DNA of 63,889 nt, counting the filler, from Craspedostauros australis (taxonomy: Eukaryota), in the NCBI GenBank assembly GCA_030167865.1. It is 9 parts of 9 records of this genome, joined end to end, with 100 filler letters (N's around TTAATTAATTAA, not from the genome) between each part and the next. Parts side by side here need not be neighbours in the genome. Positions count along the whole stretch, not along the records: positions 49,789 to 56,643 come from JALAGF010004256.1; 8 more parts are not named here. One strand, given 5' to 3'. The position numbers and the translations under genes are program-made. Of this stretch, positions 3,750 through 62,858 are shown in pieces; the stretch's first letter is position 1; each line of letters opens with the position of its first letter. The notes under the pieces are model-generated. The model ran no database searches. It worked only from the letters and a program-made list of their open reading frames with translations, and had not been told where the DNA came from.

Positions 3750-4835
3750 GCTCTTGTTGTTGTGATCGCTCTTGCTGTTGTCGCAGTTGCAGTGGCCGGA
3801 GGATGTGATGATTTTCGTGTAGAGCGCAGAGAATATGATCGTGCACGCGCCACTATTTGACGAATGGTTGCGGAACTTCAAGCTGCTTCGTTCTGAAGAT
3901 TGATAGTCTGTTTTGATGTCTGTTCAGGAATGTGCTCAATCGCGTCGTGGGACGTCGTGCTTTCGTTTTGTGAGAAGGGTGATCAACTGGCGCGAGCGTG
4001 GGTGGTGTGGTATGTTATCCTTCTGTTTGACAGGATTACGTTTTGTTGTGGAGTGGAGTGTTCTATTGCTTTCGTTGCGAAGGAGAAGTGGAGAGAGAGA
4101 GAGGTCTCTCTTTTGCATGATGGGTGTGGGGAAAGGAGACGGAACCCTGAAATGGAGCAAGGCCGTGTTGATGGAACAGTCGGAGAGGACGATGGATGGG
4201 TCCGATGCTTCTTGTTGTTCTGGATGCTTCTTTGGGGATGGCACAGATACCGTTCCTCCAATGTTGTGTTTGCCGCCGGTATCGTTCCAATGCTTTTTGT
4301 CAATTTGTCGGATGCTCCATTTCGATCCAGCAGATTCTTGGAACCCAAGCACCAATGATCATGTGATGTGCAAGGCGGAGGCAGTACCTATGCACGTAGC
4401 TACTGGCCCAGCCCAGGCCAATGTCCCTGTTTCCTTGAAGAAGAGGACCAACAAGCCACCCAACCCATGTCGGCGAGGTTGATGAGTTTTGTTTGGCCGA
4501 AACAAGACGATGTCTCAATCGTGTCACATTTGAAGTTATCACTTATCATCCAAGGACGGCGAACAACCTTCGCCCACGGGACTGTCGCGAAAGTCACGAC
4601 AAACGATCTGGATTACCTGAGCATTGTGGATCGATCTGTTCTCCGAATGTTTGGTGCTGAGACGATACCAGAACAACGAGGAAATTCACGAACCAGCCGT
4701 TTTGAAGCGCCGATTTCCACCAACCAGCCTGTTTGTGTTACTTAAAGTACCGAAACATCCGAATGTCCACGCGACGTCCCAGGGACACAATGGTTTCGCA
4801 TCGGCCCTCAAGGCTAGTAGATAAATGTAGATTGC

Positions 4836-10750: not shown

Positions 10751-10850
10751 NNNNNNNNNNNNNNNNNNNNNNNNNNNNNNNNNNNNNNNNNNNNTTAATT
10801 AATTAANNNNNNNNNNNNNNNNNNNNNNNNNNNNNNNNNNNNNNNNNNNN
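10751..10850. other. Artificial contig-join spacer 44N-TTAATTAATTAA-44N (also 28407-28506, 40503-40602, 45197-45296, 49689-49788, 56644-56743, 59029-59128, 60756-60855)
   Basis: Identical 100-nt structure with a six-frame stop linker at every occurrence. Confidence 0.98.
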
Positions 10851-27877: not shown

Positions 27878-28534
27878 TTGATTATGAGCACAAGGCATGA
27901 GCCATTTACCCCTGACGTGGTCTCTACTGTGCTGCGTACGATTCAGCCGCTGATGCCCTGTCTAACGCCCAATTAACCGAAATAACGCTCGCGTCTCCTT
28001 GGTCCCCTCGATATGCGGTGGCTGTGGTTCCGTCAGATCGTCTCATTCTCTCGCTGTCATTGTCGCTCTTTCTCGTACGGTATGTACCTGCTGCATGCCC
28101 TCACATTAGGACACCACAGGGCGCTCATCCCATCCACTGAAGAGTTACTCCTCAGCAGACCATCCGGTGGGTACTGTCGCGCAGCTTCGATGCATTAGAA
28201 GAGAATTCGCTGAGCTTGCTCTCTCCTTCGTGGTCCCAGCTGAGGCTTGGTCAGCATGTCAGCCAGATTGGTTTCCGATGGTTCATACTGAATGGTTGCC
28301 ACTCCAGCAGCCACATTCTCTCGAACGAAGTGATATGCAATTGCGTTGGCCTTCTTCCTGAGTTGTGATTCGGGTGCAGATGTGTTGTAGACGACGCTCT
28401 GATTGTNNNNNNNNNNNNNNNNNNNNNNNNNNNNNNNNNNNNNNNNNNNNTTAATTAATTAANNNNNNNNNNNNNNNNNNNNNNNNNNNNNNNNNNNNNN
28501 NNNNNNAGACACAGACGCAGGAGCTTCATCCGAG

Positions 28535-40502: not shown

Positions 40503-40602
40503 NNNNNNNNNNNNNNNNNNNNNNNNNNNNNNNNNNNNNNNNNNNNTTAATTAATTAANNNNNNNNNNNNNNNNNNNNNNNNNNNNNNNNNNNNNNNNNN
40601 NN

Positions 40603-45196: not shown

Positions 45197-45754
45197 NNNN
45201 NNNNNNNNNNNNNNNNNNNNNNNNNNNNNNNNNNNNNNNNTTAATTAATTAANNNNNNNNNNNNNNNNNNNNNNNNNNNNNNNNNNNNNNNNNNNNCTAT
45301 TCCATCTTCGTCTTCGTACGCATGTCGGAACAGCCATAGCAGACATTCCTCTGCTCCGTATGCTGCGGTATGCTGGAACACAACATTCCACGTCAACGAA
45401 TAGCAGAAAATGAGCATGCGCAGAATCGCAAGCCAAAGATACGGAAGTGCAGAAGTGTGGAAGTCCGACAGGAAGAATTGTAGACGAGACAGTTCCAATG
45501 GACAATAGACAACAGACAATGGAGAGTGAGAGTTGCAAGTGTCGCCACTGTGACTTCTTCTTGAAGTACTACTCGTATGCAACCACTATTCACTTTACAC
45601 GGCTGCAACAATGTAACATCGTGCTATTATGGCGTTCGGCGCGAATCGCATGGATGATCCGAAATGACAAACATGAAGTGCTCACAATTTGGAACTTCAC
45701 CGATCAAGAAAACCATCCCATCCCACCAAACCATATCAACCTACCTTCAACATC

Positions 45755-49688: not shown

Positions 49689-49788
49689 NNNNNNNNNNNN
49701 NNNNNNNNNNNNNNNNNNNNNNNNNNNNNNNNTTAATTAATTAANNNNNNNNNNNNNNNNNNNNNNNNNNNNNNNNNNNNNNNNNNNN

Positions 49789-50581
49789 TTGCTGGAGCGA
49801 AGGTGGAAGCAATGGTGGCTGAGACGGTCATGTTGAATGCTGTTGAATGCTGTTGAATGCTGTTGGTTTGGGTGATGGTGGTGGTTTGTGAGTTGATGGG
49901 ATGCTGAGCTTGTGCGTTAGTGAGGAGAGTACTAGTGTTTTGTTGTATAATGGTGTTGTATAATAGGTTGCGATGGAGTGCAGTGAGTGGATTGTATGTT
50001 TCTTTTGGTTGTTGGTTTGTTGATGGCTTGGAGTTTGAAATTGTGAGCACAGAATGTTGGACAGACAACTTCGAAGCACTGTCAGCACAGAATCAGCACT
50101 GTCGAAGGCGTCGGCGAAGATCGGTGTGACGGAGTGACCACGAAAGCAACCTCTGGAGTATCATAGAATAGTTCGTACTCGTATTAGTAGTCGTACCCGT
50201 ATTAGTAGTCATACCATTCGCCACTGTCGTCGAACCATGATGAAAGAGAGGAACGGTGAAAGAGTAGAACCGAGTGGAACCTGTTCTCATGACTTCTCAG
50301 ATCCAAGAGAGATTGGAAGCCGCGCGGCGACCATGTGTGCATGGCGCAAGAGTATCGTGAGAGCACATGTCAGAGCGCCGGAGCAAGGGACGACTGCTTG
50401 GATGGGAGGGAGAGGATGGAGCTTTGCGAGAGCGATTGGATCGACGAAGAAGTCGATCGCAGCAGAAGAATTCTCCGGATCACCCACTGCACCACTAATC
50501 ACCACGAGTACTGAAACGGGTGTGATGGCGTGCGTAAGCCCTTGTGAGCACGAAGTAGCACGGTGCGTACTCGTGTGTGTG
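49789..50581 (-). repeat. Inverted copy of 56744-57536; probable unmerged contig overlap
   Basis: Mirror-identical ORFs; coordinates sum to 107325; both copies begin at contig edges. Confidence 0.93.

Positions 50582-52452: not shown

Positions 52453-52484
<32 letters not shown>
52453..52484. repeat. (TG)16 microsatellite at the 3' end of the CRE-like element
   Basis: Read directly. Confidence 0.97.
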
Positions 52485-52485
<1 letters not shown>

Positions 52486-55400
52486 AACTAGGTGGGTGTT
52501 AATCACTACTGTGTAGGGCGGAACCGCGACAAGCCGAGTTTGAATCACAGAAACCAAGCACCAAGAGAGTCAGTCCCGCAGAACAGGCTCCGCCTGGAGT
52601 GACCGAGATTGTCACGTATTGATGTAGTGAAACCTGAGCAAGCGAAGATAGGGAGCCAAACTATCGATAGAGCGAGAGGCCGTCGCCATTCTCCCATGGC
52701 AACGCCCTCGTGCGCCCGAATGGCTGCCGATCAGCACGGAGACACCGGCTCGTGGCCCGCACCAATGCGATAGACAGTCGAGAGCGAACATACGAGCACA
52801 CCTGCCCGTACTTCCGCTTCCACTTCTTGGAGAGCGTGGAGGCCAGCCGCTTGGTAGCGGCAGCGGCCTCCTGCCCCACGAGTCCATCAACAGAGAACAC
52901 CAGGGGGGTGAAGTGCTTGCGCTGCTGGACGCAGCGGTCCAGATACTTGGCCTTCTTCAGCCCCTCATGCGATCGAAGGACGCTCTTGGGGGATCTGGAG
53001 CGGTACGTCCGAGCATCTGTGTCGCAGACGCGGATGTCGAAGACCGCAGTGGACCCCCGCTTCCAGAACCCATGAACTGCAACATCCCCTCGCAGCTCAG
53101 GTTCAACCTCCACAGCCAACCCAGCAGCACTGCCACCAGCACCTCGGCTGTTCCGACCAGTATGGATCAATGGTTCGTCGGAGACAGAGGAAGGGTTGAT
53201 GGCCTGGCTGCAAAGCTGGCCCCACTCGCCACATACGTCATTGTGGCGAAGCAGAACGAGCCCTCCCTTCTTGCAGGAGAGGGCATGCTCCACAGAGAAC
53301 CGCTCGCCGCAGCCATTGCATCGCTCAGGTAGCGACGCTGGGTGCAAGCCGAAGCGAATGCGGAGGCTGTCGCGAAACTCATCAGCCGACAAATCGGTCC
53401 CATTGAGCTCGCTGGGCATGGCCGTGAGCCACGCCCCAGTGGACTTGGAGCGCTCGATGCGCCGAGCAGCAAGGTTGCTGGAGTTGGCGACGATGCCCGC
53501 GAGGACACCATCGTCAGCCTCTTCCTTGGCCTTGAGCCGTTTGCGCCTTGCACTCCTGGCAGCACTGACAAACCGCTCCACATTGAGACTGGACCCCTGA
53601 ACCAGGGACTGGGTGAGGCAATCCGTGGCATGGACGGACGTGGAGTGGTTCTCAGCCGCCGCAGCAGTGGGATCGGGGATCCCAAGCCCAGCCTGCTTGA
53701 CTGGCAGGCCGAGGAGCCGGCGCAATCCGGCTACCTCGGACACATCCGCATCCAGGAGGGCTGGGAGGAAGGTGCCAGCAATGGAAGCCTCAACAGGGCG
53801 GAAGCAATCTCCAGAGTTCTCCACAATTCGCTGCAAGAACGACCACTCGGCCTGCAGCGACTTGGAGAGGCCAGCAAACGCAGTCTGCGGGAACCGCTTT
53901 GCCACCTTCGCGAGCTCATGGATGCCGTGGACCCACTGCTCGATCTGAGGCGCAATCCAGGCCTCCCTGGAAGCGTCAGACCCGACAAATCCGCCCACGT
54001 AGCGGTGGCCATCGCGGTGGTTGAAGCCAAACTCGGCCAGTGCGGCGCGACAGGCAGCATCCTCATCCGCTTTGCAGCAGACAAACACGCTCTTCGCAGG
54101 CTCGGGGAAGTACCCACGAGCTGGACCCTGCTGCGCCAGCAGACGAGTAGCGGCGGCAATGCCATCCACAGGGCCCACCATGGCAGCATCGTCGGCATAC
54201 CATGGCTGAAGCACACTGGGGACGGCCTCGCGCAGCGACGCCACAAGTGGCAGGAGAGCAACTCCATAGAGGACCATCGAAAGAGGATCCCCTTGGGTCA
54301 CACCCTCGCGTGACTGCAGCACAGTGCTGCCACCCTGTCCTCGCAGGACGAGCATGGCGGAGTGGCGGTAGCAATTGAATGCAAACCGAGCCCCACCTGC
54401 CCAGCGATGCCGCACAGTCCAGAGCATGGCCTTGCGGCTCAGCTCGTTGAACCCATTGCGAGCATCGACGAGCAGCATTCCCCGTGGGATAGAGGCTGCC
54501 TCGTCGCCGTCACCACCACCGCCAGCGTCCATCGCACGACCAGCTCCGCCAGAAGAGGCAGGTGGGTTGCCAGATTCAGTGCTGTCGCGGCCATTGGCGG
54601 GCGCGGCGTCGTTGCTTGGGTCGTCGTCGCCGTCGTGGAACGCAAGTTGCACCGCATGAACAGCACCCTCGATGCCTGCTGGCAAGCCAGCACACAGGTT
54701 CAGGTTGCCACAGGCGGAAGTGGCACGACGCCCAATGGCAGCAAGGACGCATTTCGCCATGAGACGACGAAACACTTCGCCAATGCCGAGAGGACGCACA
54801 CCTGGACGCTTGTCCAGCGCAATGAGGCGGCACGCCATCATGGCGCGGTAGGCAGCCCACGGAGGATGGGAGTTGGAGAGCCAGTTGGTCCAAGCAGCAA
54901 TCTCCTCACGGAGATGCTTGGACTCGCTGCCAAACCGCAGGAGCCAGTTGCCCAGATCAACGGCATCAACACCGCCCGGACCAGCCGCCCCCGAGAGTTT
55001 GGAAGCAACCGATCCAACCACCTCCTCAGTGATCTTGACAGGGACAGGGGTGGGAGCAGGACCACCGTACGGCTCGAACGCTCCGGACCCGTCGCCATCA
55101 ACGCCAGGATCACGCATGGCGGGATGTTTGAGCCGCAGTGCCTCCTCCACTGGCAGACCAGACTTGGCGTCGACGTCAGTTGGAAGGAGGAGATCGCCGC
55201 CTTCACGAGATGTTAGGGTGCGAACCGCAGCACGCAGACGACCGGAAAGAACCTTCGAGTTGAAGGCGCGGGCACGCGACTCGTCGTCGCGTGTGCCACC
55301 AGATCGAGCAGCATGCTGACGCAGCTCGGATTCGGTGTCCTCGACCAGCGCGGCAAACTTTCCGGCCTCCCACAAATCCATGCGAGAGGACAGCCGCTGC

Positions 55401-56602
55401 CGGACGTCACCGGCGCCACGAACACCAGGGGTGGTCTGGAGGACCACTGCCGCAAGCAACAGCGGTCGCTCCGAGTTCCACAGCCGGTCGCGAACCCCCT
55501 TGAGCTCCAGAGAGAGGAGGCGAAGGAATCTGCGGCCGACACGGCCACGCGGGACAGAGTAGCGTCGCGGGGAGAACGCGACGACGCGAGCCCAGCGCTG
55601 CTGCCACACACTATCTCCGTCAACACCACCATGGAGGTGGGAGCCGTCGTTGTCGTGGGCGTGGTCGCCGTACACCTGATCCAGCATGCCATCCGCGGGA
55701 GTTGCGGCGTAGCCAGGGAGATCCGCGCCCCTATCAGGAGTCACAACGTTGCCAGGAGCGGGCACAGGCCCGCCGCGACGAGGAGGGACTTCAGAAGCGG
55801 CGGCAGCCTCCGGCGGAGCAGGATCAGAACCCTCAGGTGCAGGAGGGGCCTCCACACCATCGGCGGGAACAGGAGCAGTCGGTGGCGCTGCAGCTGTTGC
55901 AGGGACGGGCGGAGGAGGGACGTGAGCTGCTGGGGGTGCAGCAGCGTCAGTGGTTGGGTTGGCGGCACCACAATCGCCCGTGTTGCTGGCATTGTTGGCA
56001 CCGTCGCTGCGGCTGCCATTGTTGACGACAACACCACTGCTGTCAGCACTGCCGCGGTATGGATTCACCACAGCAGGATGGGCAGGAAGGAAGGCATCCA
56101 TGGGCCCATCAGCGGTAGCAGCGACAGCATCGCGCTTGTTGGTGCAATGTCTCTTGCATGCGCAAGAGACACAGGTGCGGCCAGCAGCGCGACACTCGCA
56201 CTGATGTGAGCCCCTCGCAGGGCGAGAAGGGCACACAGCAAAGCGAGAGCAAGAGCAGCACGGTTGAAAAGTTGTGCGCTGTCGGCGGTGAGGGGGAGTG
56301 GCCTCAGAACCGGTGTGCGCAGAATTTTGGGTCGTGTGTGCCCTGCGGCGAGATTCCGTCGGCCCACGATGAGCGGTACTGCGACCGCGTGCGGGAGGGA
56401 CGGGGGAGGAATTCTCCGATGGATGAGTTTGTCCGACGCTTGACGCCCGACGCCGACCATGGCGACTCTCATCAGCCATGATTGTCGGTGCAAATCAGCC
56501 CCTGTGGCAGGACGGCAGCGGCGTAAAGACGGAACACAAGTCCCTCGATGAGGTGCGGTGAGAGAGACCTGTTCAGCAGCCCTCGCACGGCGCCCGGAGG
56601 TG

Positions 56603-56604
<2 letters not shown>
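52485..56604 (-). mobile_element. CRE-clade-like RLE non-LTR retrotransposon, apparently full-length (~4.12 kb; ~125-nt 5'UTR, ~176-nt 3'UTR), flanked by (CA)n
   Basis: Single intact RT-RLE ORF; GC/CpG-rich block bounded sharply on both sides by TG tracts. Confidence 0.88.
52661..56479 (-). CDS. Retrotransposon ORF: CXC-like Zn cluster + reverse transcriptase + CCHC knuckle + restriction-like endonuclease (1272 aa)
   Basis: RT motifs GAAGPGG, LIALDK.PGVRPLGIGE..RRL..K, LVDARNGFN, GVTQGDPLS, WYADD, RYVGGFVG, GLGIPDP; C-terminal CNGC...HALSC, RHNDV, RGDV...FDIRV, KKAKY, FTPLVFSVDG. Confidence 0.93.
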   Translation of the reverse strand: MADESRHGRRRASSVGQTHPSENSSPVPPARGRSTAHRGPTESRRRAHTTQNSAHTGSEATPPHRRQRTTFQPCCSCSRFAVCPSRPARGSHQCECRAAGRTCVSCACKRHCTNKRDAVAATADGPMDAFLPAHPAVVNPYRGSADSSGVVVNNGSRSDGANNASNTGDCGAANPTTDAAAPPAAHVPPPPVPATAAAPPTAPVPADGVEAPPAPEGSDPAPPEAAAASEVPPRRGGPVPAPGNVVTPDRGADLPGYAATPADGMLDQVYGDHAHDNDGSHLHGGVDGDSVWQQRWARVVAFSPRRYSVPRGRVGRRFLRLLSLELKGVRDRLWNSERPLLLAAVVLQTTPGVRGAGDVRQRLSSRMDLWEAGKFAALVEDTESELRQHAARSGGTRDDESRARAFNSKVLSGRLRAAVRTLTSREGGDLLLPTDVDAKSGLPVEEALRLKHPAMRDPGVDGDGSGAFEPYGGPAPTPVPVKITEEVVGSVASKLSGAAGPGGVDAVDLGNWLLRFGSESKHLREEIAAWTNWLSNSHPPWAAYRAMMACRLIALDKRPGVRPLGIGEVFRRLMAKCVLAAIGRRATSACGNLNLCAGLPAGIEGAVHAVQLAFHDGDDDPSNDAAPANGRDSTESGNPPASSGGAGRAMDAGGGGDGDEAASIPRGMLLVDARNGFNELSRKAMLWTVRHRWAGGARFAFNCYRHSAMLVLRGQGGSTVLQSREGVTQGDPLSMVLYGVALLPLVASLREAVPSVLQPWYADDAAMVGPVDGIAAATRLLAQQGPARGYFPEPAKSVFVCCKADEDAACRAALAEFGFNHRDGHRYVGGFVGSDASREAWIAPQIEQWVHGIHELAKVAKRFPQTAFAGLSKSLQAEWSFLQRIVENSGDCFRPVEASIAGTFLPALLDADVSEVAGLRRLLGLPVKQAGLGIPDPTAAAAENHSTSVHATDCLTQSLVQGSSLNVERFVSAARSARRKRLKAKEEADDGVLAGIVANSSNLAARRIERSKSTGAWLTAMPSELNGTDLSADEFRDSLRIRFGLHPASLPERCNGCGERFSVEHALSCKKGGLVLLRHNDVCGEWGQLCSQAINPSSVSDEPLIHTGRNSRGAGGSAAGLAVEVEPELRGDVAVHGFWKRGSTAVFDIRVCDTDARTYRSRSPKSVLRSHEGLKKAKYLDRCVQQRKHFTPLVFSVDGLVGQEAAAATKRLASTLSKKWKRKYGQVCSYVRSRLSIALVRATSRCLRADRQPFGRTRALPWENGDGLSLYR

Positions 56605-56643
<39 letters not shown>
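56605..56643. repeat. (GT)n microsatellite (at least 19 units, runs into gap) at the 5' end of the CRE-like element
   Basis: Read directly. Confidence 0.97.
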
Positions 56644-57493
56644 NNNNNNNNNNNNNNNNNNNNNNNNNNNNNNNNNNNNNNNNNNNNTTAATTAATTAAN
56701 NNNNNNNNNNNNNNNNNNNNNNNNNNNNNNNNNNNNNNNNNNNCACACACACGAGTACGCACCGTGCTACTTCGTGCTCACAAGGGCTTACGCACGCCAT
56801 CACACCCGTTTCAGTACTCGTGGTGATTAGTGGTGCAGTGGGTGATCCGGAGAATTCTTCTGCTGCGATCGACTTCTTCGTCGATCCAATCGCTCTCGCA
56901 AAGCTCCATCCTCTCCCTCCCATCCAAGCAGTCGTCCCTTGCTCCGGCGCTCTGACATGTGCTCTCACGATACTCTTGCGCCATGCACACATGGTCGCCG
57001 CGCGGCTTCCAATCTCTCTTGGATCTGAGAAGTCATGAGAACAGGTTCCACTCGGTTCTACTCTTTCACCGTTCCTCTCTTTCATCATGGTTCGACGACA
57101 GTGGCGAATGGTATGACTACTAATACGGGTACGACTACTAATACGAGTACGAACTATTCTATGATACTCCAGAGGTTGCTTTCGTGGTCACTCCGTCACA
57201 CCGATCTTCGCCGACGCCTTCGACAGTGCTGATTCTGTGCTGACAGTGCTTCGAAGTTGTCTGTCCAACATTCTGTGCTCACAATTTCAAACTCCAAGCC
57301 ATCAACAAACCAACAACCAAAAGAAACATACAATCCACTCACTGCACTCCATCGCAACCTATTATACAACACCATTATACAACAAAACACTAGTACTCTC
57401 CTCACTAACGCACAAGCTCAGCATCCCATCAACTCACAAACCACCACCATCACCCAAACCAACAGCATTCAACAGCATTCAACAGCATTCAAC

Positions 57494-58267
57494 ATGACCG
57501 TCTCAGCCACCATTGCTTCCACCTTCGCTCCAGCAATCACCTCTGGTGCCAACGTCTCGGCGGCCATCAGCAGCGTTCTGATGATCGGCGCCACCGGACG
57601 AATGGGAGCCCAACTCATCAACTCCATGTCCAAGCACGAAGCCACCAACGGTGCCTCCGTCGAGATCTCAGCATTCTGCCGCACCCCAGGCAAGCTCGAT
57701 GCCGCCACCAGGGCACGATGCGCACATGTCTACAAGGGTGACGCTCGCCGTGCCTCCGACCTCGAGTACGCCATCCATGATTCCAATGCCGATCTCGTCC
57801 TCGTCGCCGTCGGTAACGGTGACGACGTCAGCAAGTCCGATATCCGCGAGGCCAACGCCAAAGCGCTCGTGCNNNNNNNNNNNNGCAATCCAGCATTCGA
57901 GCACGTCCGCGTCTTCGTGGTCTCCAGCAACGGCGCGGGACCCACCAAGATCAAGGCAGGCTTCGGCCTCGGTCTGATCCTGCAGTACTACCTGCGCCAC
58001 GTGATGAAGGATCACACCAATCAGGAGAACGTGTTCCTGAGCGGCATGAAGAACCGTGTCGGATTTGTGCGTCCCACAGCATTGACCGATGGCAAGCCGA
58101 CCGGACACATGAAGACCTTCGGCGACAAGGACAAGCCACCGTCCATCCAGACCGATCGTGCCGATTTGGCCGATTGGGTGACCGCCAACGTCGTGTTCGG
58201 AGCCGATTCCAACAAGGTGAATGCCTTTGGTTCCAACGCCTTCAACGTCACATGCGTCAAGAAGTGA
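57494..58267 (+). CDS. NAD(P)-binding Rossmann-fold protein (flavin/biliverdin reductase B-like atypical SDR)
   Basis: VLMIGATGRMG dinucleotide-binding motif, AFCRTPGKL, KGDA, VRPTALTDG, DRADLADW; a 12-N internal gap keeps the frame. Confidence 0.88.
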   Translation: MTVSATIASTFAPAITSGANVSAAISSVLMIGATGRMGAQLINSMSKHEATNGASVEISAFCRTPGKLDAATRARCAHVYKGDARRASDLEYAIHDSNADLVLVAVGNGDDVSKSDIREANAKALVXXXXXNPAFEHVRVFVVSSNGAGPTKIKAGFGLGLILQYYLRHVMKDHTNQENVFLSGMKNRVGFVRPTALTDGKPTGHMKTFGDKDKPPSIQTDRADLADWVTANVVFGADSNKVNAFGSNAFNVTCVKK

Positions 58268-59221
58268 GAACGCAGAATGAGACCTTGATTCGTGATGTGT
58301 CTCTGGTGTGAGAATTCGCCCCAGTTTGACAGGAAGCAACGTGAGCGGCAACTGCGACGACAGCATGAAACTCGCACGAGCCCTGTCGGATAGAGAGGTG
58401 GAACCACAGAACAACAACAAATCAACGACTTCCAGATCATATAGAATATATTCTAATACGTACCAGTACCATGCGTCGAAGATATCAGTTTGGTGGAAAC
58501 AGCCAGAGTACTCAGTTCCAAAACATACACAGTCCAGAAGAAGCCACTCCACTTGTGGCGAGAGCAGTCAATTACATCTACTCGTCCTACCAGTATTACC
58601 CTCATGCCATGGTGGTTGCAACAGGTGCAATGCTGCTGCACTCTTTCGCCGCATCGCGTGTCATTCTCTCTTTCTCCTTTGCGGCCTCCGATGGTCTTCA
58701 CTCCGGAGATTGATTTGTGTGTTGCGCTCCTTGTTGTTGATGCTCTCTTGGTTGTGCTTGTCGTGATGTTTGTGACTTCGTTTTGGATCATTTTTGCCGT
58801 TTCGTGACACCATGTCTTCGCCAGAAATATGACATCTCTTTATCACTATTAGGTGTTTGTGCTTTTTGCTTTTGCTTCTGGTGTCACGCCATGTGTTCTC
58901 TGGAGGAACAATTGGGCTGTCGACGTCACCATCATCTGGCCGCCAATAGGATGAAGCAGATGGCAAGGAAGCGAAAGAATCGGATCGAGAGGAAAGGAAG
59001 AGATGTCAGGGATGGTCCAATCAGATGCNNNNNNNNNNNNNNNNNNNNNNNNNNNNNNNNNNNNNNNNNNNNTTAATTAATTAANNNNNNNNNNNNNNNN
59101 NNNNNNNNNNNNNNNNNNNNNNNNNNNNGACTTCCCTGTGTCTCTCACTACCTATCCTACCACAGTTTGTCAGCACCATGGGCCATCAAACATACCACAC
59201 TGGGCATCCGGCTTGCGCCTG

Positions 59222-60674: not shown

Positions 60675-61114
60675 AGAGGCCTATCGCATTTCACATTGGG
60701 AGTCCCACGGTACAAAATAACCTGATAATGACATTTTTAGAGGGGCAACATGCGANNNNNNNNNNNNNNNNNNNNNNNNNNNNNNNNNNNNNNNNNNNNT
60801 TAATTAATTAANNNNNNNNNNNNNNNNNNNNNNNNNNNNNNNNNNNNNNNNNNNNTCAGGACATTTAATTTTGGCGTTTGACTGGCTGGAACACGTATCC
60901 ACGACACAAATTATGAGTGTCACAACAATTCATCGTGTTGTGGCTGGTGTCATTTGCTCCGTTCTTCCGTGTGTGCCTGTTCCGGGCATTGGTGGACCTC
61001 CACTTGCAACATGGTACTTGCTTGTTCTGGTTTTGTCTCCTGCTGCGTCAACACAATCATGTTATTGTTTCTACTGTCCAACAAGCTTGGTTACGTCTAT
61101 TTTACAGTCTTTTC

Positions 61115-62858
61115 TCAGCGGATGCGTTTGCGTTTGCTTTTGACTTGTCTTCCACTGTGACTATGTTCCACCACGTTTGCAAGTCTTTCGTTCATTCGAG
61201 CTTCCGCCGCATCTCTTCGCGACGCTGCCAATGCCGATTCCCAATGTATCTCTCTTTCTTTCGGGGTGGCTGTTTTGTTCAGACCTTTTCTTTTCTTGTT
61301 GATTGTTGTGGTTGCTGTATCCGTTCCTTGGTCTTCGTCACTGTTGCCATCATGTTTGTCTGACTCTATGCTCGCAAACAATTCGGTGGACTCCGTTCTT
61401 GTGACATTGGGAGGATGTTCATCATAGTTGCCGTGGTCTTCCCTGTCGGTGCACTCTGCATTTTGTTGGGAGACGATGATTGCGGAATCGCTGTCACTGC
61501 CAGTTTCGCTGCTGTTTTGATTGGCTCCATCATCAGTCTTGGGATCCTCCATTTCATCGGTGCTGCTATTTGACGCAACATGTTTGTCTGTGGACTTTGA
61601 TTTGCTCCCACACTTGATCCGAGGCTTCGTTTTGCCCTTGCTGCTGCTCCTTCCTAGGTGTCTATCGCTATTGCGATTCTTGTTCTTGTCCTTGCCTTTG
61701 CCTTGCGTCTTCTGTGCCATCATTCTTTTCTTCTCCTCTGCATGCACCAGAGCTTTGGTTAGCCATGTTTTGTCAGGTAGATGTGCAATCCGATGGCAAC
61801 AGTTGTGAATCTCCACAGCTTGCTTTCGCTTTGGCACCTTCTTCAACGCTACCATAGAGGGGATGCCAAATTTCCTGATGATCTCCTCGGTCTTTGGTGT
61901 GAGATTTGCGCATACAGAAATTCCACAGCCAGCACACAACCACTGGGTGCGAGAGAGGCACACCAAACAAGTGCCTTTGAACTTCTGACAGTATCTGGGG
62001 GTATGCTGCCCCTTCTTCATCCTTTGCGTCAGCTCCAGCACTTGCTTGTCTACCGCTGTGCGCGAGCTGTTCAGAATTGACTGTAGCTTGGATGGACGTT
62101 GTGGGGATCCCTCGGGTTGTATGTTGCCATCATCCACTCCAGTGACACCTTCTGGCACCAAGGCCACTGGGTGACGCTCGGTATGCTGGCCATTGTCGTT
62201 TCTTGGTGATTTAGTCTCTTCATTCAGCAGATCTACCACCTTCTTTGCAAAGCGGCCAATGATGGTTGTCATGGATGTGTTGAAACTCCATGCATGATTC
62301 GCTCGATTGCGGTAGTGCTCGATGGACTCATTAGGTTGGAAGAGGCTGCCATCTTCGTCCTCCCGCTTTGTTGTGTGTTGGAACATTCGGTGAAGGCCAA
62401 CAAAGACGGTCTGGAGAAGTCGACCGCTCGCCACAGCATTGAGATTTCCCTGTGGGGGTGGGGCCTCATGTTGGCGAATGAGCCGTGTTGTGATGTCAGA
62501 TCCGCCCTTGAGTCCATTCCACCATGCACAGCCATAGGGTAGAAATGTCTTCACTGGCGGTACGGGAAACTCAATCTGTTGTTGGCAGCTTTGCCACAAC
62601 TTGAGATGATGAAAGAGATCATCACTTCGTAGGTGCCATAGAGTTTTGCTGGCTCCTCGGAATTTGTTTGTCTGTGGATCGGTATCGAGAAAGTTCGACA
62701 TGAGATGGCATGACGATCGTTGTATCTCGTTATCGCAGTCTTCTGGATACGCAAACCCCAGCACCAGCCAGAATATGTCATCCATAACATTCCCATAGTG
62801 TTGAAGCAATGCGTCTGGAAATCTGGTGGCGATACTGCGGATGATTTCACCATGCCTG
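61115..62858 (-). mobile_element. piggyBac-like DDE transposase, C-terminal part, 5' end disrupted by an LTR-like insertion
   Basis: WWNGLKGGSD resembles piggyBac YN..KGGVD; C-terminal CLVC...WLCAGC...C...C...H Cys-rich domain; reading frame extends upstream to the TGTTGG at 62859. Confidence 0.6.

Follow-up and report, generated by a model that had tools for sequence, protein, structure and literature searches.

A probable CXC-type zinc cluster at the N-terminus of a (CA)n-flanked retrotransposon of Craspedostauros australis

The element and its cysteine cluster

A stretch of 63,889 nucleotides (nt) of DNA from Craspedostauros australis (assembly GCA_030167865.1), which was analysed as a whole and is hereafter called the window, carries a retrotransposon whose single, intact open reading frame (ORF; P0001, 1272 amino acids (aa), 52664-56479 on the minus strand, with the stop extending to 52661) bears a compact cysteine cluster near its N-terminus. 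The cluster, CCSCSRFAVCPSRPARGSHQCECRAAGRTCVSCACKRHCTN, encoded at 56138-56260 on the minus strand (aa 74-114), comprises ten Cys and an Asn and is, judging from its sequence, probably a divergent zinc domain of the CXC superfamily. Nine of its Cys fall in ligand order, with C75, C77, C83, C94 and C96 followed by C103, C106, C108 and C112 (CXC-C-CXC-C-CXC-C, 5+4). The spacing reported for aa 75-114 in a first-pass annotation of this DNA, C-S-C-x5-C-x10-C-E-C-x6-C-x2-C-A-C-x3-C-T-N, is exact on translation of 56138-56260. Its tally of nine Cys and a terminal Asn holds for those residues but should be raised to ten Cys, since C74, directly before C75, is conserved too, giving a family signature of ten Cys and Asn (CC-x-C...). 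Immediately upstream of the cluster lies a basic stretch, PPHRRQRTTFQP (56261-56296, minus strand), whose R-rich motif is semi-conserved in relatives. The further statement that no C2H2 or Myb motif occurs elsewhere in the N-terminus agrees with what we found: a C2H2 regular expression matched nowhere in the 1272-aa ORF, a Pfam scan of aa 1-460 gave no match and detected neither C2H2 nor Myb, and the sole CCHC that a motif search of the ORF located outside the cluster is at aa 1054-1069.

The element lies on the contig at 49789-56643 (JALAGF010004256.1), is present once in the window, has no long terminal repeats (LTRs), and is bounded by (CA)n at both ends; all features listed here are on the minus strand. 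The 5' flanking (CA)n, which reads GT on the plus strand, occupies 56605-56643, the contig terminating within it, and the 5' untranslated region (UTR; 125 nt, 56480-56604) begins with CTCCACCTCC directly after the repeat. At the other end, a 3' UTR of 176 nt (52485-52660) is followed by (CA)16 in the sense strand (52453-52484), a 3' tail or target repeat with unique DNA beyond. From the 5' end to the end of the 3' UTR the element measures 4120 bp, with a G+C content of 62-66% as compared to 47-51% in the flank. Downstream of the cluster, the ORF continues with a Pro/Ala/Asn-rich, low-complexity linker (~aa 120-250, 55730-56122), poorly conserved and of varying length in relatives, and then with a conserved region preceding the reverse transcriptase (RT), characterized by GADLPGY...GDHxHxNDG...WNSERPL (aa 251-460, 55100-55729). 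Pfam and PDB searches gave no match to this pre-RT region or to the C-terminal 233 aa, and the former possibly serves in RNA binding. The RT core follows at aa 687-767 (54179-54421), with QGDPLS and, at aa 761-764, YADD; RVT_1, below cutoff at E 0.017-0.055, is the sole Pfam match of the ORF, and in the PDB it is matched best by the RTs of R2 and LINE-1 ORF2 (E 0.004-0.015). Toward the C-terminus come the CCHC motif (C-x2-C-x7-H-x3-C, aa 1054-1069, 53273-53320) and a putative restriction-like endonuclease region (52895-53248) with RHND (aa 1078-1081), RGD (1130-1132) and FD (1147-1148), all three near-invariant in relatives. This succession, unmatched in Pfam and PDB, resembles the CCHC and restriction-like endonuclease familiar from the R2 literature. 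Altogether, the element is probably a single-ORF non-LTR retrotransposon of the restriction-like-endonuclease group (R2/NeSL/CRE/R4/HERO). As one part of the overall explanation developed below, we would, with modest confidence, order its product as CXC domain, linker, conserved pre-RT region, RT, CCHC and restriction-like endonuclease.

Conservation of the cluster among relatives

A search with aa 1-500 of the ORF returned 40 proteins, of which the named ones belong to the diatom Fragilaria crotonensis and the rest to metagenome-type contigs of ~4.2-4.4 kb. A strict regular expression finds the full cluster in 8 of the 40; P0032 has a variant, P0017 begins within the cluster, and in the remaining proteins the start lies beyond the cluster or a frame shift is evident. 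A profile built on ten N-termini (A1), searched against 1.84 billion representatives, recovered 128 proteins at E<=0.001, mostly short N-terminal fragments, with 23 of these at E<=1e-10. A relaxed CXC regular expression was matched by 64 of 127 profile-found proteins, and the non-matching remainder either lacks Cys-8 or has substitutions at one to three Cys, frequently to Tyr or Phe in the manner of decaying copies.

When 139 profile-selected sequences were aligned with hmmalign and no regular-expression filter, each Cys was retained in 127-133 of the 134-138 sequences covering it (93-98%), with the exception of the less conserved Cys-8 (C108; 108/139, 78%), and N114 was Asn in 133 of 138 aligned relatives (96%). 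Because the profile itself rewards Cys, these figures are partly circular. With that proviso, the Cys are conserved in homologues, a point on which the first-pass annotation had made its proposal depend. A second alignment, A3, of 72 copies chosen by regular expression, served for the non-Cys columns and as model input only, as its "invariant" Cys are so by construction. Among its conserved non-Cys positions are R79 (60 of 72 copies), S81 (59), T82 (63), A99 (52), G100 (42) and R101 (57), and the median net charge of the 72 copies is +8 over 55 residues.

These data bear on the simplest alternative, namely that the cluster is a chance Cys-rich stretch or the functionless relic of a dead element, which strikes us as scarcely credible. 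The one point that speaks for it is that the window copy lacks a significant database match. Against it, ten Cys in 41 residues, with 1.6% Cys in the remaining ORF, correspond to a binomial P of ~9e-10, the ORF is intact, and the Cys are kept at the frequencies given above across 139 relatives whose identity within the domain is only 30-50%.

Two further sets of sequences were also encountered. P0042, a protein of 869 aa from the representative library with no RT, is made up of ten tandem repeats of 84 aa, nearly identical to one another and each with a similar CxC...CxC...CxC...CxN cluster, and its Pfam scan gave no CXC match. A distant, A+T-rich branch at ~33% identity (L068:154-900, L075:61-800, L076 and L079) has a cluster of the form CC-x-C...C-x2-C-x-C...C-x2-C...CC-N and, upstream of it, an additional Cys/His-rich region that is absent from the window element.

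Is the cluster a CXC domain?

The consensus for the CXC superfamily, as stated by Zheng et al. (2012, PMC3447885), is CX[C/H]X2-13CX4-7CXCX5-60CX2-4CX1-2CX2-15CXN, with the C-terminal Asn as its signature, and the same paper notes large spacing variation in deviant members. The window copy fits every spacing but that between Cys3 and Cys4, and has the signature Asn (N114). This gap ranges from 4 to 14 across the 72 regex-selected copies, and the four copies in which it is 4-7 fit the consensus fully, as do metagenome loci such as L029, L030 and L036.

Profile searches point in the same direction without reaching their cutoffs. The window copy itself gave no match to the Pfam CXC-family models (PF16682, PF03638 and PF18264). 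MSL2-CXC was matched, below threshold, by two of ten members scanned; a scan of the 72 copies gave 12 matches to MSL2-CXC and one each to TCR and preSET_CXC, all below the gathering cutoffs, together with one match each to two unrelated families; and a scan of 23 locus-encoded copies gave seven to MSL2-CXC, three to TCR and four unrelated single matches, again sub-threshold. The best of all is that of L029 to TCR (E 0.0017 and 19.1 bits, the cutoff being 23.5), spanning profile positions 3-37 of 38. The CxC1-7 models of Pfam, which we take to represent KDZ-type DNA transposons, were considered as an alternative identity, and the scans of 10, 72 and 23 family members showed no match to any of these models at E<=10. 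Searched against 177,635 PDB sequences, a profile of the 72 sequences had one match, the MSL2 CXC domain, with an alignment that runs from end to end at E=2 and keeps the Cys in register, Cys-3 excepted. A fibronectin chain was the lone PDB match of a ten-sequence profile (E 0.81) and was judged to be noise.

Structural comparison of a predicted model, a check proposed in the first-pass annotation, pointed weakly toward CXC families. An AlphaFold2 model from A3 reached a predicted local distance difference test score (pLDDT) of 74 and a predicted template modelling score (pTM) of 0.49, and all 11 Foldseek rows obtained with it were EZH1/2 (PRC2), NSD1/2/3 or ASH1L, at weak E values of 4.5-9.7. 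NSD1 (3OOI), among these matches, is the example of a SET2-type CXC variant in Zheng et al. (PMC3447885). Neighbours in the ESM Atlas include an MSL2-CXC cluster (0.83) and a TCR cluster (0.75); all scores lie below 0.9 and serve as leads only.

Several points weigh against this identity and against the element architecture that goes with it. The Cys3-Cys4 gap of the window copy is 10, outside the published 4-7; a whole sub-lineage lacks Cys-8; the tenth invariant Cys is surplus to a Zn3Cys9 scheme; an earlier AlphaFold2 model, built on 10 sequences, had a low pLDDT of 54.7; and the endonuclease assignment comes from motifs and recall only, the Pfam and PDB searches being empty. No individual line for CXC, whether Pfam, PDB profile, Foldseek or ESM Atlas, is statistically significant alone. 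Nevertheless, because five sub-threshold routes agree, we consider it likely that the cluster has a CXC-type fold. The identity put forward in the first-pass annotation can therefore be kept in part: the Cys order, the Asn and the weak matches point to CXC, whereas the Cys3-Cys4 spacing is off and the matches stay sub-threshold.

A rival explanation would have the Cys form a zinc- or disulfide-stabilized cluster of some non-CXC fold, or else a CXC fold employed in another role, such as binding of the element RNA, oligomerization, or docking on chromatin or host proteins, with the DNA target left to the endonuclease and other regions. We hold this to be doubtful. The weak matches from five independent routes belong nearly all to CXC families, with only a few isolated ones elsewhere, the signature Asn two residues past the last Cys is conserved, and the strong positive charge suits nucleic-acid binding.

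Simple repeats beside family members

A scan of metagenome contigs yielded 79 loci of the family. The cluster was found by regular expression in 29 of them, to which looser inspection adds L038, L052, L068 and L075. Among the 23 loci whose sequence extends 700 nt or more upstream of a conserved anchor, 16 have the cluster; the other seven are a variant (L038), truncated or frame-shifted copies (L033, L034, L039 and L044), and long N-termini without it (L049 and L051).

In 15 cluster-bearing loci a simple repeat adjoins the element. Given in the sense strand, the repeats are A/C-rich in all loci but L016. They comprise (CA)n at both ends (L040, L045 and L050) or one end (L004, L027, L028, L046 and L062), (CAA)n at both ends (L014) or one (L010), the telomere-type unit (ACCCTA)n at both ends (L006), (ACT)n at one end (L007 and L009), (ACAA)n at the 5' end together with (ACAT)n at the 3' end (L036), and (TCT)n at the 5' end only (L016). 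In every repeat-associated member the 3' tail is made of that same repeat, and L006, L007, L009 and L050 form head-to-tail arrays in which element, repeat and element succeed one another. At least as many cluster-bearing loci have no flanking repeat, and in some of these the contig ends first. In L006, whose repeats lie at L006:45-92 and L006:4258-4293, the loop between Cys3 and Cys4 is short and a long insertion precedes the last Cys of the cluster.

The nearest relatives of the window element, L001 and L002, have the cluster and no flanking microsatellite, and are arranged in arrays with no repeat between units. In L001, positions 1-123 equal 4212-4334, a full tandem array in which the 3' end abuts the element's own 5' end; in L002, positions 46-104 equal 4257-4315, a 59-nt partial copy of the 5' end followed by unique DNA. 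These ends suggest one of two things, a target other than a repeat or an extended duplication at the insertion point.

Does the cluster read the repeat?

The first-pass annotation had proposed the CXC domain as a reader of the dinucleotide repeat. Stated fully, this rival explanation holds that the domain itself recognizes (CA)n sequence-specifically and sets the target, much as the MSL2 CXC reads dinucleotide steps. The precedent is the MSL2 domain, which reads dinucleotides from the minor groove by one Arg, R543, directly before Cys-4 (PMC4248295). In addition, the domain of the window element occupies the slot of the DNA-binding fingers in R2-like elements, no other DNA-binding motif was detected, and many cluster-bearing relatives are flanked by repeats.

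However, the distribution and sequence of the cluster among relatives argue against such a reader. The cluster is common to (CA)n, (CAA)n, (ACT)n and telomere-like relatives and to a sister lineage without repeats (L001 and L002). A FastTree phylogeny of the ORF bodies places L004, at (CA)n, and L009, at (ACT)n, as sisters, sets the (CAA)n pair beside the (CA)n clade, and gives L001, which has no repeat, as the sister of the window element. Cluster identity does not track target. The sisters L004 and L009, with different targets, share 66% of the cluster and 82% of the body, a cluster divergence no greater than in same-target pairs; L027 and L028, both at (CA)n, share only 57.5% of the cluster as compared to 74.5% of the body, while L040 and L046, likewise with the same target, share 82% and 87%; and L040 at (CA)n and L014 at (CAA)n, with different targets, are more alike in the cluster (66%) than in the body (54%). 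No covariation of cluster sequence with repeat type appeared in 11 pairs, a small sample, which limits what these comparisons can say against a (CA)n reader. The residue equivalent to MSL2 R543, at position 93 before Cys-4, is Gln in the window copy and, among the 72 copies, Gly in 39, Ala in 21 and Arg in 3. The proposal of a dinucleotide-repeat reader is thus not upheld, and the cluster is unlikely to be a specific reader of (CA)n; the domain more likely provides general nucleic-acid affinity.

A proposed role in target engagement

The explanation that we favour, with modest confidence, is that the cluster is a divergent CXC-superfamily zinc domain serving as the N-terminal module of a non-LTR retrotransposon, to which it would lend affinity rather than unit-level specificity. 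The strongly basic domain would bind nucleic acid, most likely the target DNA, and may thereby help to guide the endonuclease at the C-terminus to simple repeats rich in A/C, where it would then nick the (TG)n strand. With this strand the (CA)n 3' tail of the element RNA could pair and so prime reverse transcription. In that case the RNA tail and the endonuclease, and not the CXC domain, would be the main determinants of the choice of repeat unit. As the repeat-associated members carry the repeat as their 3' tail, pairing of the RNA tail is the obvious alternative source of unit specificity, an argument that draws on how target-primed reverse transcription works.

A broader evolutionary reading is tentative. 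It is possible that, in a whole lineage of diatom-type non-LTR retrotransposons, C2H2 and Myb fingers gave way to a recruited Zn3Cys9 domain of CXC/pre-SET type as the target-engaging module, and that close relatives in this lineage have switched among (CA)n, (ACT)n, (CAA)n, (ACAA)n and telomeric (CCCTAA)n targets. Should the domain recognize a feature shared by A/C-rich repeats, such as the G/T-rich strand or a peculiar geometry of the duplex, this would be the first demonstration of a mobile element guided by a CXC domain, and the family would offer a natural system for telling target choice read by the protein from that read by the RNA tail during target-primed reverse transcription.

Relation to known systems

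Three groups of CXC-type domains are the closest known systems on the side of the domain. The MSL2 CXC (PF16682; PDB 2lua, 4rkg and 4rkh) has the same nine-Cys order, CXC...C...CXC-x6-C-x2-C-x-C...C-x-N, with the signature Asn, an equal span of 16 residues from Cys-2 to Cys-4 in the HMMER alignment, and the most frequent Pfam matches, and it is a precedent for a basic, DNA-binding domain of this kind. It differs in the placement of Cys-3, which lies at 11+4 there and at 5+10 here, in the additional N-terminal Cys of the present family, in the dinucleotide-reading Arg before Cys-4 that is missing here, and in its host, a RING ligase as opposed to a retrotransposon ORF; scores against it also remain under the Pfam cutoff. 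The tesmin/TSO1 (LIN54-type) CXC (PF03638, TCR) shares the Cys order, and members of the present family with a short Cys3-Cys4 loop come nearest its cutoff of 23.5 (L029 at 19.1 and L016 at 16.5 bits) over almost the full 38-position profile. Unlike the single copy here, that domain mostly occurs as two CXC copies, according to PMC3447885; no family member matches it at cutoff, and the window copy is unmatched. The third group consists of the pre-SET, AWS and EZH2-CXC clusters of SET-domain histone methyltransferases.

On the side of the element, R2, NeSL, Utopia and Togen combine a single ORF, an N-terminal zinc module, a central RT, and a C-terminal CCHC and endonuclease, the layout proposed here for the window element. 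The N-terminus of R2 carries C2H2 and Myb motifs. According to PMC4640811, Utopia/NeSL-type elements insert into repeats including (TG)n microsatellites, Togen is (TG)n-specific, and one to three zinc-finger motifs are described, where the window element has a CXC-like module and no C2H2. The Penelope-like elements (PLEs) Naiad and Chlamys offer a further parallel, as PMC8557442 suggests that a "CxC" motif may target their endonuclease to DNA repeats, with (CA)n common in Chlamys and a (CA)n/(TA)n insertion bias. These elements differ in having a GIY-YIG endonuclease and a PLE RT, and their unrelated CxC motif is likened to zf-CDGSH and not to a nine-Cys CXC (PMC8557442).

No retrotransposon with a CXC/tesmin domain was described among the literature matches listed, Repbase and Dfam being outside the comparison, and none such appeared among the matches listed for non-LTR elements of diatoms or at microsatellites. 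Repbase or Dfam may already contain an entry for the family that leaves the domain unmentioned. What we see is probably a known element architecture joined to an unusual, CXC-type N-terminal module. The N-terminal slot of such elements can apparently be filled by a very different kind of zinc module, a CXC-like cluster known elsewhere from MSL2, LIN54-type factors and histone methyltransferases, and the range of the CXC superfamily would extend to mobile elements. Site-specific non-LTR retrotransposons such as R2 are under development for programmable DNA insertion, for which target choice by the N-terminus is central. With sister elements at different simple-repeat targets, including telomere-like ones, the family is a natural test bed for the contributions of protein and RNA 3' tail to target choice.

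Further observations on the element and the window

The motif CCACCT stands at the extreme 5' end of the window element (56595-56604) and of its relatives L010, L014 and L062, and recurs just upstream of the window element's 3' repeat (52491-52496). An Rfam scan of the element gave sub-threshold microRNA and small Cajal body RNA matches over the TG/TA repeat only, with no ribozyme family listed.

The window consists of contigs strung together by linkers of 44 N, TTAATTAATTAA and 44 N, at 10751-10850, 28407-28506, 40503-40602, 45197-45296, 49689-49788, 56644-56743, 59029-59128 and 60756-60855. As these linkers are artificial, features on either side of them are not true neighbours. The first 793 bases of the contig bearing the element (49789-50581) match, in reverse complement and at 100% identity, the first 793 bases of the contig that follows (56744-57536). 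The two are unmerged, overlapping contigs, so the following contig continues the genomic sequence beyond the 3' end of the element and not beyond its 5' end. On a different contig, a minus-strand ORF of 564 aa (61115-62809) carries a run rich in Cys, CLVCLSRTQWLCAGCGISVC, as well as extended basic and acidic tails.

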